In this document: positions 15,459-28,881 of the stretch, piece after piece
Layout of the letters: the number at the start of each line of letters is the position of its first letter
How positions within the stretch are numbered: position 1 is the first letter of the stretch
Sequence record: PV763039.1
DNA: 64,000 nucleotides
Strand: one strand, 5' to 3'
Source of the DNA: Escherichia phage WPEC6
Notes under the pieces: generated by a model
Databases searched by the model: none
What the model saw: the letters and a program-made list of their open reading frames with translations, nothing else
Told to the model about the DNA's origin: nothing
Position numbers and translations under genes: made by a program

Positions 15459-15654
15459 TTCTACCTCCTTCAATGCTTTGTGCCGTACCATCCCAAGCCA
15501 TTAGAATGTTTTCCAATAGTTCACGAGGCTCTTTAAACCAAACTTCCATTTCATCAAGGATCTCGTCCGTGTCGTAAGTATAACCTGGAACACCAAGTTC
15601 ACATTTCTTAAGATAGCTTTCTAACCAGCGGTGATAATTCTTAACCCCATTCAT
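15451..15654 (-). CDS. hypothetical protein
   Basis: ORF track. Confidence 0.5.
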   Translation of the reverse strand: MNGVKNYHRWLESYLKKCELGVPGYTYDTDEILDEMEVWFKEPRELLENILMAWDGTAQSIEGGRNE

Positions 15655-15979
15655 ACTGTGCTACCTTTTCTTTTACCCAATCTACACGATCTTTATCATA
15701 ATGTTGAGTGCCAAGGAAAAGACCATTGTGGAAACTTTCCTCACCGAAAGGATAAATTGGATCTAAACCATCTTCTTCAAACAACATTTTTAATCGATTT
15801 GATGTAGATTTCTTAGTTTCTGAGTTGTAGTTTGTGGTTATAAGCCAATCTTCCAAACAACGACACAAACCTTGACGAGAATCCCAAGGAAAAACACAAT
15901 CTCCGACAGGAGCTTGTTCCGCCCATTTCAACCAGCCTTTAAAAAAGTTATACAGTATGTAGTCTTCAGTGTAATACAT
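15641..15979 (-). CDS. paralog family A member (FY..WL / GLC / PF / WVKEK)
   Basis: ATG 15979 after RBS AGGAGG (track ORF starts at 16027); shares motifs with five other ORFs in this block. Confidence 0.55.
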   Translation of the reverse strand: MYYTEDYILYNFFKGWLKWAEQAPVGDCVFPWDSRQGLCRCLEDWLITTNYNSETKKSTSNRLKMLFEEDGLDPIYPFGEESFHNGLFLGTQHYDKDRVDWVKEKVAQYEWG

Positions 15980-15995
15980 TATCTCCTCCTTTACG

Positions 15996-16024
15996 TATAC
16001 AATAACACCCCGAAGAACGGGGTG
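15996..16024 (-). terminator. intrinsic terminator candidate (leftward)
   Basis: stem CACCCCG / CGGGGTG (16006-16024) followed on the minus strand by a U-rich tract. Confidence 0.45.
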
Positions 16025-16030
16025 CAACTG

Positions 16031-16642
16031 TTATTTAATCTGTTTAAAAATTTCGTTTGGAACGGTACCGTTTAAAATACCTTCTACGATCTCTTGTGCA
16101 GACGTGTAAGAGAGTCCAAAAGAAGCTACGCCTAAAATTGCCTCCTTCAAAGGATCTGGCAGGGGTTCAAAATTACCTGCAACAAAGCCACCTGCACAAG
16201 CAGCGCCTTCATCATCCCAGAAAACAACTGCTACATCGTTACCATGCGAAGTTGTGCGATGTGCAATAACTTCAACTTCGGTGCCTTCTTTAGGAACAGA
16301 ATAAGAACTGTCCCAAGAATATCTTTCCAAATCAGGAACAAAGATAACCTTTTCACCTACTGGCGGCAGTTCACAACGATAATACCAAGAATTTTTTTCG
16401 TTCATTGTTTTATTTTCCTCCACGTCTTCAAAAGTAACGATCCAATCGTAGCCGTAAGAAAACGGATATTTTAGATCTAAAGAATAAGTTTGACCTAGAT
16501 CGTCCTCAACAAGAACCATCCTGTCAAAGTTTGCGATGTTAGGATTATGTTTAATGATAGGGTATGTTTCCCCTACAGTAAATTGTCCCAAATGGTAAAG
16601 TTCATCTCTCCAAGTAATTTGGATATGAGTGCATTGAATCAT
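16031..16642 (-). CDS. hypothetical protein
   Basis: ORF track. Confidence 0.55.
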   Translation of the reverse strand: MIQCTHIQITWRDELYHLGQFTVGETYPIIKHNPNIANFDRMVLVEDDLGQTYSLDLKYPFSYGYDWIVTFEDVEENKTMNEKNSWYYRCELPPVGEKVIFVPDLERYSWDSSYSVPKEGTEVEVIAHRTTSHGNDVAVVFWDDEGAACAGGFVAGNFEPLPDPLKEAILGVASFGLSYTSAQEIVEGILNGTVPNEIFKQIK

Positions 16643-16646
16643 AAAA

Positions 16647-16919
16647 TCACCCCCAAGAAATATTTATATATCTTACAATGTTTGCACTGTCTAAAGCCAT
16701 GTTTGCACCACACCCACGCTCGCGCCAGTAACTAACAATACCTTCGCAGATACTTTCTTGTATCTTCTTATCACTTGGCATTTCTAGTATAAGACTTGGG
16801 TTGTGGATGTTTATGTTATAATATCCTTCCTCTGCGGCTTGAGCTACCAATTTACTTACTTTTTCAAAGTACGGGGAATTAGTGGCATCTGCCATTGTTT
16901 TTAAGGTTTGTCTATCCAT
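16647..16919 (-). CDS. hypothetical protein
   Basis: ORF track. Confidence 0.5.
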   Translation of the reverse strand: MDRQTLKTMADATNSPYFEKVSKLVAQAAEEGYYNINIHNPSLILEMPSDKKIQESICEGIVSYWRERGCGANMALDSANIVRYINISWG

Positions 16920-17284
16920 TATTCTGCCTCATCATAGAAGAAATCCAACTCTTGTTCCAGTTGTTTAACTCGATCCTTAACCCACTGTACACGTTTTTCA
17001 TTAAACATGCAACGTTTTTCCTTACACTCTTGCTCAAAAGATTTTGCTGTGTTAAATGGGAAAGTTGTATCTAAGCCAGCGTTTTCAAAACTGGCTAATT
17101 GCATACCATAAACAGAATATGCTAGAGAATGCTCTGCCCGAAATTCATCACTTATATACATACGCAGACCTCGGCATAAGCCAACATCAGCGTAACCACT
17201 TTCTCTTGGAAAGAGACGGAGGTGTTCTAACCAATTATTATAGAAATCTAAAAGAATCCTCTTACACTTCAAATCGATTGTCAT
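16919..17284 (-). CDS. paralog family A member
   Basis: ATG 17284 after RBS AAGGAGA (track ORF begins at TTG 17317); motifs FYNNWL, GLCRGL, FPFN, RVQWVKDR. Confidence 0.5.
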   Translation of the reverse strand: MTIDLKCKRILLDFYNNWLEHLRLFPRESGYADVGLCRGLRMYISDEFRAEHSLAYSVYGMQLASFENAGLDTTFPFNTAKSFEQECKEKRCMFNEKRVQWVKDRVKQLEQELDFFYDEAE

Positions 17285-27076: not shown

Positions 27077-27081
27077 TGGCT

Positions 27082-27537
27082 TTACTCCTTATCAATAGTG
27101 ATTGTGGCGTTTGCTACTGCAACACGAGCGTAAATCTCAACCGTCTTCGACGGATAATCCTTCTTAGCTTTTGTAGCGACTTCAGAAGCTTTTTCAAAAC
27201 TAGAACAAACATCTACACACTCTGATCCTACGATCACAACATGCCATTGTGGTTCTGCTTTACCCATTGTTTCCTCCTTTACTTCTTCAAAATATTTAAA
27301 TTCTTCGTTATCAATCAAATAAGTATATGAATTAAACCCTGGGGTAACACCTGCTGTATAAAGGGTACCATTAATATAAAACTCAAGAACATGACCATAC
27401 TTATCATCTGTATTCATAACTTTGAAAACTTCGTTTCCAATCGCTTGGCAAACAGCAATATTTGCTTTGTCATGTGTTGCCATATCTCCTTGGTCAGCAA
27501 CGCTTTTGAATTTATAAGTAAACCCTACTTTAAACAT
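27082..27537 (-). CDS. MFK-family tandem paralog
   Basis: ORF track; N-terminus MFKVGFTYKFKS, C-terminal WHVVIVGSEC and VEIYARVAVA shared with 26621-27076. Confidence 0.55.
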   Translation of the reverse strand: MFKVGFTYKFKSVADQGDMATHDKANIAVCQAIGNEVFKVMNTDDKYGHVLEFYINGTLYTAGVTPGFNSYTYLIDNEEFKYFEEVKEETMGKAEPQWHVVIVGSECVDVCSSFEKASEVATKAKKDYPSKTVEIYARVAVANATITIDKE

Positions 27538-27559
27538 GATCTTCTCCTCTTATGTTAAA

Positions 27560-28009
27560 TTATTGTTCTACTTCACGCAACCACGCTAAAGCCTCTTCTG
27601 GAGATTTATCGAAGTCGTTGAGCAGTTCCTGCTCCAACTCCTCTTTCATTTCATTCAGCACTTGCAGTTGCCGTGCTTTCTTCCATAACAAAACTTTCCG
27701 TTCAGTGTTGTTTGGTGTTACTTCATTTCCTGCTATCATCACATATCCTGTTGGAGAGCAAGGAAGATAGTCATCAATATCTTCTAAAGCATAACGATAA
27801 TTGGAGTCCAGAAAGTTTACATGTACACGATCACATCCAAACAAGGTAGCACGGAATACTTCGTAACAAGTTTCAGATAGAATATGTTGCACACAGACAA
27901 TACCTACATCATCTTGCACTGCACAGGTTACATCCAACAAACTTGAATGTTCTTTGACATAATCTGCAACACATTGCACATGTGCTTCCAGTATAGATAG
28001 TTGTCTCAT
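27560..28009 (-). CDS. hypothetical protein
   Basis: ORF track. Confidence 0.55.
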   Translation of the reverse strand: MRQLSILEAHVQCVADYVKEHSSLLDVTCAVQDDVGIVCVQHILSETCYEVFRATLFGCDRVHVNFLDSNYRYALEDIDDYLPCSPTGYVMIAGNEVTPNNTERKVLLWKKARQLQVLNEMKEELEQELLNDFDKSPEEALAWLREVEQ

Positions 28010-28245
28010 TTTCTACCTCCCCATAATGCTAACATTTTATTAAAAATAGAAATGCGTCGTGCGCGAGATGCTAATGTTATATTATCTTCCTCGGCACGTT
28101 GCAAGTAGCGATCACACTTAATCAAAGCTTGCGTCTTCTCTTTTAGAGTTTGCGTGTTCATCCACTCTGTCTCAGAGTAGTGATTGTAGAAGTATTCTGT
28201 ATCCAGAACATTCATAGCTATCTCATTATCTACTGGAAGGATCAT
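28006..28245 (-). CDS. hypothetical protein
   Basis: ORF track. Confidence 0.5.
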   Translation of the reverse strand: MILPVDNEIAMNVLDTEYFYNHYSETEWMNTQTLKEKTQALIKCDRYLQRAEEDNITLASRARRISIFNKMLALWGGRK

Positions 28246-28463
28246 TGTACCTGCTCCGCATCCTTCAAGTTTTTAATGAAGTAACGACCAACCGGATTCC
28301 CTCGGAAGTATTCGTTAATGAAATCGATAACACACGTTTCACTGCCTGTCACAACGGACGGCTTAAAGTTTTGGAATTCTACAGCTACACGGCTGGCTTT
28401 AGCCAGTGCTTGCACACGTGTAGGATCAGTCAAGAACATTGTGACAGTTTTCAAATTCTTCAT
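28242..28463 (-). CDS. hypothetical protein
   Basis: ORF track. Confidence 0.5.
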   Translation of the reverse strand: MKNLKTVTMFLTDPTRVQALAKASRVAVEFQNFKPSVVTGSETCVIDFINEYFRGNPVGRYFIKNLKDAEQVQ

Positions 28464-28512
28464 TTCATCTCCTCATTGGCTATCTGTTATGTCATCCATT
28501 ATACAGACATTT

Positions 28513-28881
28513 TTATTCAATGCAAGCATTATTTGCATCTTCAATTCTGTCTTTCACCCATTGAAGACGTAACGTGTTGGTATGACACGCCAAGTTTATA
28601 CACTCTGAAAGGTAATCCATGCAATCTGCATTGAACGGAAGATTGTAGTCCAGCCCTGCACATGTAAATTGTTTCCTCATTTCATATTTCAAACGGTCTA
28701 ACAAACTATCCCGCCATCTTCTATCTTCTTCTCTAGTTGTCTCACCAACAAAATCATCTACATAATCTACCAGACAACCACATAAGCCACTCGTTGTGCG
28801 ATTCATTGCAGGATAGTTGGCAATCCATGCTTTATAGAAGCGAAGCAATGTTGCACTGCTCAACGGAATATTATTTGTCAT
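28513..28881 (-). CDS. paralog family A member (first gene of leftward block)
   Basis: ORF track; motifs FYKAWI, GLCGCL, LPFN, RLQWVKDR. Confidence 0.55.
   Translation of the reverse strand: MTNNIPLSSATLLRFYKAWIANYPAMNRTTSGLCGCLVDYVDDFVGETTREEDRRWRDSLLDRLKYEMRKQFTCAGLDYNLPFNADCMDYLSECINLACHTNTLRLQWVKDRIEDANNACIE

Follow-up and report, generated by a model that had tools for sequence, protein, structure and literature searches.

Why should a single phage carry six versions of the same small gene? The question is raised by a 64,000-nucleotide stretch of Escherichia phage WPEC6 (PV763039.1), here called the window in its full length, in which a leftward block of small genes contains six similar open reading frames (ORFs). 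We find that the six genes are paralogs of a phage-restricted domain related to gp3 of phage N4 (PHROG 2510), which is cytoplasmic, about 100 residues long, five-helical, and usually mildly acidic. Furthermore, tandem duplication, the fusion of genes, and the replacement of alleles have expanded this domain to 6 to 10 copies in phAPEC8-like myoviruses. As to function, we lean, with somewhat less than even confidence, to the view that the copies act early in infection as accessory effectors and that their targets are host macromolecules; variable segments would set the specificity, and the paralog set would broaden the target range.

Six paralogs of a phage-restricted domain

A first-pass annotation of the window had grouped six ORFs on the basis of shared motifs, and all six are indeed present on the minus strand (Table 1). 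Their kinship has clear statistical support, with BLASTP matches in all 15 pairs (E values of 5e-4 to 7e-41; 23 to 51% identity). When a hidden Markov model (HMM) of the six proteins was run against every six-frame ORF of the window, the six scored at E values of 1e-38 to 6e-47 and the next best ORF at 0.51. There are therefore exactly six copies in the window, and their similarity is far beyond chance. The colinear order of the motifs was likewise borne out by multiple alignment (MAFFT), which showed 16 invariant columns, including L9, F12, P24, G37-L38-C39, L42, F67, G71-L72, P77-F78, R98, and W101-V102 (numbered as in the first sequence). In its details the proposed motif set needed correction: GLC, F..GL...PF, and R..WV are invariant in all six copies, but GAP is found in only three and EM..QF in four, the latter having been lost from the copies at 15641 and 16919. 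The N of PFN is replaced by G in one copy (15641) and by D in another (23893).

Shine-Dalgarno sites precede all six starts, that of the 15641 gene (before ATG 15979) reading aaaggagg. Between this gene and the 203-aa gene at 16031-16642 lies a GC-rich, terminator-like hairpin on the minus strand (16005-16025; 8 pairs, 6 of them G-C), which overlaps an alternative TTG start at 16027. The third gene is real, but the start first assigned to it, GTG 20227, is less likely than ATG 20221, which has a GAAGGAG site 7 nt upstream and agrees with the annotation of phAPEC8_0044; GTG 20227 is disfavored because it lies too close to that site. The stop codon of the same gene (19901-19903) is overlapped by a near-consensus sigma-70 promoter on the minus strand (19876-19904; TTGACA, 17 nt, TG-CATAAT; 11 of 12 matches), which faces the downstream 184-aa gene. 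All six proteins are acidic (isoelectric point [pI], 4.5 to 5.3; net charge, -4 to -11), and upon inspection of the sequences neither a signal peptide nor a transmembrane segment was seen in any of them.

Table 1. Family members and larger features of the window
Feature	Positions	Strand	Length	Remarks
Leftward block	12202-28881	minus		About 49 small genes, nearly all without known domains; six family copies, a serine recombinase, other paralog pairs
Member 1	15641-15979	minus	112 aa	Among the two most divergent copies; PFG for PFN; no EM..QF; phrog_2510 E 6e-27; family HMM E 6.5e-23; ortholog phAPEC8_0054 (98% identical)
Member 2	16919-17284	minus	121 aa	No EM..QF; Met where His90 is usual; phrog_2510 E 2e-26; family HMM E 5.7e-27; ortholog phAPEC8_0051
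Member 3	19901-20221	minus	106 aa	Length from ATG 20221 (a GTG 20227 start would add 2 codons); phrog_2510 E 4e-31
Member 4	20660-20986	minus	108 aa	51% identity to member 3; phrog_2510 E 5e-31
Member 5	23893-24207	minus	104 aa	PFD variant; phrog_2510 E 9e-29; ortholog phAPEC8_0030
Member 6	28513-28881	minus	122 aa	7 Cys; long insertion between helices 2 and 3
Junction region	28882-30264			28886-30264 is an inverted copy of phAPEC8 ~430-1811 (93% identity)

All six proteins match phrog_2510 ("unknown function") over about 105 residues, with E values of about 1e-25 to 1e-31. With the family HMM they score at about 1e-23 to 1e-38 and N4 gp3 at 4.8e-23. The motif set FY..W, GLC, F..GL...PF(N/D/G), and (H).N..R..WV is present in all six and is 90 to 99% conserved in 206 distant domains. 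The first-pass annotation could not place the family in any known fold, and our sequence searches of Pfam, NCBIfam, PADLOC, and PDB were consistently negative, whether a single sequence or a profile (of 6, 34, or 126 sequences) served as the query. Pfam and NCBIfam gave no match for the six copies, no recurrent weak Pfam match was found among 126 diverse members at E<=5, and no PADLOC defense-system protein matched the family at E<=1. Word-indexed homolog searches returned few matches and no informative names.

The family extends well beyond the window and is widespread among phages of Proteobacteria. With a cutoff of E<=1e-3, an exhaustive HMMER profile search of 1.84 billion representatives returned 1,578 clusters, defined at 50% identity; 622 of them remain at E<=1e-10. 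Among the top 179 clusters, 19 contain two tandem domains and one contains three. Some members carry an N-terminal DUF551, a putative Ea22-like N terminus, or transmembrane-like segments, the DUF551 and putative Ea22-like fusions being typical of lambdoid early-left accessory genes. By tblastn, the family was found in 245 phage records, with hosts in Escherichia, Klebsiella, Salmonella, Erwinia, Pectobacterium, Pseudomonas, Rhizobium, Achromobacter, Burkholderia, Ralstonia, and Delftia, and its carriers include N4-like, T7-like, T1-like, rV5-like, and PAK_P1-like phages as well as lambdoid prophages. The domain is essentially phage restricted and is typically located in early or accessory blocks. 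Scans of sequence collections with a restrictive peptide pattern gave one bacterial and six viral loci, a number too small for statistics on gene neighbors. The sole match in a bacterial genome is to a lambdoid-type prophage of Pararobbsia alpina, in the early-left region, where the family gene is flanked by a Bro-N/KilAC antirepressor and a YqaJ exonuclease with a CI-like repressor nearby. Among plasmids, the family was found in 1 of 72,556, which is a phd/doc phage-plasmid, and a location in plasmid leading regions was rejected on these grounds. In this E. coli plasmid (NZ_CP148392.1, 44153-54461), genes near the family member encode phd/doc, a PAPS-reductase family protein, DUF968, a dUTPase, and a DUF2829 protein; DUF2829 is the domain family to which the anti-Thoeris sponge Tad2 belongs.

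The best-known relative is N4 gp3. The annotation of Achromobacter phage JWAlpha links phAPEC8_0044 to this protein, and the family HMM confirms the kinship; N4 gp3 also carries the GLC, PFN, and H.N..R..W motifs. Its gene is located in the interval from gp2 to the RNAPII genes gp15/16, which a review of N4 counts among the early products. Two further single members were confirmed, gp5 of the T7-like phage JG068 (Autographiviridae), situated between host promoters and a terminator, and gp18 of the T1-like phage Sf12, in a run of small genes. Possibly, the position of N4 gp3 directly after gp1 and gp2, which are cofactors of N4 RNAPII, hints at a role internal to the phage, such as that of an accessory factor for transcription, replication, or genome internalization or of a chaperone-like adaptor. 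The strong conservation of the core would also fit a conserved partner. The family is found, however, in phages that differ entirely in how they transcribe and replicate their genomes, and core machinery would not typically vary between 1 and 10 copies with such rapid turnover. We therefore consider an internal role unlikely.

Conserved core, predicted fold, and possible function

Conservation was assessed in an alignment of 206 domain instances, taken from clusters with at most 50% identity to each other and numbered according to the full 20660 protein. The most strictly kept residues are Cys35 (201 of 203), Arg95 (204 of 205), and the pair Pro72-Phe73 (205 of 206). Next come Gly33 (197), Trp98 (195), and Asn92 (188, plus 13 with Asp), and then a group of polar residues comprising Gln61 (172), Glu57 (167), Glu83 (155), Asn74 (150), and His90 (145). 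The structure of one of the six paralogs, the 20660 protein, was predicted with AlphaFold2, a step that the first-pass annotation had proposed. The model is of high confidence (predicted local distance difference test score [pLDDT], 94.5; predicted template modeling score [pTM], 0.87) and consists of five helices (residues 5-19, 34-42, 50-64, 77-85, and 93-107). A Foldseek search of BFVD with this model retrieved 18 viral homologs with template modeling (TM) scores of 0.75 to 0.89, and no similarity to any solved, enzyme, or sponge fold was seen. In the model, Cys35 and Arg95 both occupy a first turn, the former that of helix 2 and the latter that of helix 5. Whereas 19 to 38 residues separate GLC from QF, the distance from PFN to RxxWV is fixed at about 20, which argues for a constant scaffold and site with variable loops.

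The divergence of the copies had at first been taken as a sign of diversifying host interaction, an interpretation that our results support in part. As a purely diversifying surface, the domain is poorly described, given that Cys35, Arg95, PF, and several polar residues are near invariant in more than 200 distant domains; this near-invariance points to a conserved biochemical site. Conceivably, then, the family comprises small thiol-dependent enzymes or small-molecule binders, for instance, sponges for a host signaling nucleotide or a metabolite, with paralogs that differ in ligand or substrate. The pocket would be formed by Cys35 at a helix N terminus, Arg95, His90, Asn92, Asn74, and Glu57/Glu83. 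A helix N terminus favors a reactive thiolate, and both Cys35 and Arg95 are found in first helix turns of the confident model. The extreme conservation of Cys35, Arg95, and PF across the 206 domains is better explained in this way than by binding to host macromolecules, and the retention of the same residues in phages of very different hosts would fit a universal ligand. On the other hand, the domain is all-helical, has only about 100 residues, and shows neither a cofactor motif nor any likeness to an enzyme or sponge fold. The substitutions seen at Asn74 (N/G/D) and Asn92 (N/D/S) are typical of turn and helix-cap residues, Cys35 falls within the hydrophobic stripe of helix 2 (i, i+3/4, i+7) and may simply be buried there, two of the paralogs in the window lack Glu57 and Gln61, and a multi-Cys metal site failed. 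On balance, we regard an enzyme or small-molecule binder as a serious possibility, if not a probable one.

Two specific biochemical candidates were rejected. A zinc site formed by Cys35, His90, and either Cys36 or Cys88, which the sequences of the six paralogs had suggested, showed no compensation between the latter two (odds ratio, 1.05; p=1; 206 domains); Cys is absent at both 36 and 88 in 88 of the 206 domains, and only Cys35 is invariant. A HEPN-like RNase was discarded since the Rx4-6H motif in a four-helix domain was not found.

The acidity of the six proteins and their position in an early-type block might suggest DNA-mimic antirestriction proteins similar to T4 Arn or T7 Ocr, and one allele of the 28513 gene (CAM6581850.1) is in fact labeled "Anti-restriction nuclease." This label is unsupported, since hhalign gave a probability of 0.07% for a match with T4 Arn, BLASTP gave no alignment, and the PDB search gave no Arn match. 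Across the family the median pI is 5.3, the median net charge is -4, and 11% of the domains have a pI above 8; DNA mimicry as a general mechanism was rejected on the grounds of this charge distribution. Sequence, charge, and fold thus largely refute the idea, which we consider very improbable.

In the reading that we prefer, that of early accessory effectors, each copy would keep the conserved scaffold and a putative conserved site consisting of Cys35, the loop Pro72-Phe73-Asn74, and, where helix 5 begins, His90/Asn92/Arg95; these residues might form one exposed cluster. The copies would differ in the loop between helices 1 and 2, in the insertion between helices 2 and 3, and in helix 4. They might bind host macromolecules early in infection, in the service of takeover or counterdefense; target specificity would then reside in the variable segments, and the paralogs together would cover several related targets or target variants. 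Early action is consistent with the early-type locations of N4 gp3, JG068 gp5, and the Pararobbsia prophage gene, and the accessory character is consistent with the DUF551 and Ea22-like fusions, the phage restriction of the domain, the turnover in copy number, and the replacement of alleles.

Several points weigh against this reading. The roughly 99% invariance of Cys35 and Arg95, together with the conservation of Glu57, Gln61, Glu83, His90, and Asn92 over alpha-, beta-, and gamma-proteobacterial phages, speaks more for an enzyme or ligand site than for a binder engaged in an arms race. Neither experiment nor homology links the family to a host target or defense system, and literature searches on the PHROG identifier, locus tags, accessions, N4 gp3, JG068 gp5, and Sf12 gp18 yielded no functional data. 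Early timing in phAPEC8-like phages is inferred from position, by analogy; no transcript data for these phages were found in the literature. Finally, the six family genes and 34 neighbors have the same median identity to phage phiWec179, 65%, so that the notion of a family evolving faster than its neighbors was rejected; the whole block is mosaic, and nine neighbor genes have no ortholog in phiWec179.

A combined view would see a previously unrecognized, phage-specific fold whose invariant Cys-Arg site binds or chemically modifies a conserved molecule of the host, for example, a nucleotide, a thiol-reactive target, or an immune signal, and which phAPEC8-like phages have amplified and diversified into an effector arsenal of 6 to 10 members. 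We consider this doubtful, although worth stating: if true, it would add a new class of early phage effector for which phage N4 would be a ready genetic model.

Copy turnover and the surrounding gene block

The window belongs to a phAPEC8-like E. coli myovirus (Phapecoctavirus). Its leftward block is 100% identical to that of Escherichia phages WPEC1, WPEC2, and WPEC4 and 96 to 98% identical to many Phapecoctavirus genomes, including phAPEC8. Counting of copies in related phages, as had been suggested at the outset, was done with the HMM and gave 6 in the window, 6 in Shigella phage SF1-1, 7 in the first 36 kb of phAPEC8, 9 in phiWec179, and 10 in a metagenomic contig (Logan SRR21291453_14229); N4, JG068, and Sf12 have one each. 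At >=70% identity, 46 domains fall into 26 types. In phiWec179, three of the nine domains stand in tandem at the position of phAPEC8_0018 and phAPEC8_0019. The metagenomic contig packs its 10 domains into 12.6 kb, the densest array seen, and includes six consecutive family genes (4166-6633), one of which encodes a 211-aa two-domain fusion, P0035. This tandem protein shows the same five-helix pattern twice. A model made to test rigid pairing of its domains, which would imply dimerization, reached a pTM of 0.68, with domain 1 poorly covered by the alignment; the domains of such fusions may act in pairs.

Turnover is particularly evident at the 28513-28881 gene, which is a hotspot of tandem arrays and allele replacement. 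In one contig with flanks 94 to 97% identical to phAPEC8, the alleles at the 0018/0019 position share only 50 to 52% protein identity, and alleles of member 6 between flanks of this similarity are 42 to 67% identical, while all 0019-type alleles have the same C-terminal tail, QWVKDRIEDANNACIE. Such low identity within near-identical flanks, combined with an identical tail, argues for allele replacement by recombination. Rapid gain and loss of copies could also be expected of decaying or neutral duplicates without a current function. Yet the six ORFs are without exception intact and preceded by Shine-Dalgarno sites, each has a 95 to 100% identical ortholog in phAPEC8 and SF1-1, and the invariant residues are kept in every copy, which makes neutrality a highly implausible explanation.

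The 28513-28881 gene had also been singled out as the first gene of the leftward operon. This is true of the arrangement in the window but not of phAPEC8, where its 99% identical ortholog phAPEC8_0019 comes after a seventh family copy, phAPEC8_0018, and 17 further genes (0017 to 001), all on the same strand and the last-named with predicted host-type promoters. The window is colinear with phAPEC8 from position 1 to 28886, where colinearity stops (blastn, megablast), and it is because of this junction that the seventh copy is missing. The argument from being first in the operon therefore depends on the window arrangement. Beyond the inverted segment, the terminase/portal module follows from 30265 on, whereas other Phapecoctavirus records place it about 50 kb away. 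The arrangement at 28886-30264 could reflect either a true rearrangement or a join made during assembly. The WPEC1, WPEC2, and WPEC4 records are unusually long (156 to 161 kb) and match in 13 to 18 separate places. Two copies of a promoter-like element lie on the plus strand of this region (28977-29052 and 29355-29436; TTGATC/TTGCAA, 16 nt, TATAGT/TATATT), each followed by a shared leader starting TAGGGCGGC, upstream of small plus-strand genes. They resemble the repeated promoters that were predicted by PHIRE and annotated in phAPEC8 genes 001-012.

Amid the small genes of the leftward block is that of a serine recombinase (17693-18370, minus strand; Pfam Resolvase, E 5e-18), labeled "DNA invertase" in relatives, which could be relevant to the inversion at 28886-30264. 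In an all-against-all comparison of the 49 minus-strand ORFs at 12 to 29 kb, the six-copy family was the largest paralog set. Two further pairs were found on this strand, 19292-19846 with 25844-26143 and 26621-27076 with 27082-27537 (BLASTP E values of 9e-10 and 2e-14), and the ORFs at 16647-16919 and 26171-26608 may, as judged by eye, be remoter members of these sets. None of the genes in the two pairs or their candidate members matches Pfam. The minus-strand gene at 23276-23497 has a homolog in SF1-1 labeled "protein ea8.5" (a lambda exo-xis region protein); the label is tentative, as the window protein has no match in Pfam.

Comparison with known systems

Small multicopy ORFan families are a familiar sight in phage early blocks, and the present one was already catalogued as a PHROG of unknown function, with members annotated as "hypothetical" and N4 gp3 present in databases for years. 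What appears to be new is the recognition of a single very large family that includes N4 gp3 and has a confident fold without a solved relative. The near-invariant Cys/Arg signature and the expansion to 6 to 10 copies in phAPEC8-like phages likewise seem not to have been described before. Host-takeover and antidefense proteins come mainly from phage early regions, yet most genes of these regions are uncharacterized. In this setting the family is a tractable target, as it combines more than 1,500 clusters and the availability of model phages with near-invariant Cys and Arg residues, copy expansion, and allele swapping. N4 gp3 can be mutated in a classical system, the six paralogs provide a natural specificity series, and if a target is found, the annotation of thousands of phage genes would follow.

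The true homologs known to date, N4 gp3 and the other members of phrog_2510, differ in copy number, which is one in N4, JG068, and Sf12 versus six here and up to ten in relatives. T4 Arn resembles the family as a small early phage protein whose name is attached to one family allele, but there is no similarity in sequence, profile, or fold, and the charge of the family is much weaker. The sponges Tad1, Tad2, and Acb2 are, like the family, small, phage restricted, found in unrelated phages, and equipped with a conserved pocket (putative in our case); they show no similarity to it in sequence or structure and serve as the model for a rival reading only. The gene "accordions" of poxviruses and the multigene families of African swine fever virus are alike in their tandem arrays, copy-number variation, fusions, and allele turnover, whereas the family described here is a phage system with another fold, in which adaptive amplification is only putative. 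As a model of how the proteins might work, we favor the inhibitors of host proteins T4 AsiA, T7 Gp2, and T7 Ocr, which the family resembles in size, in its early-type block position, and in the absence of enzymatic motifs.

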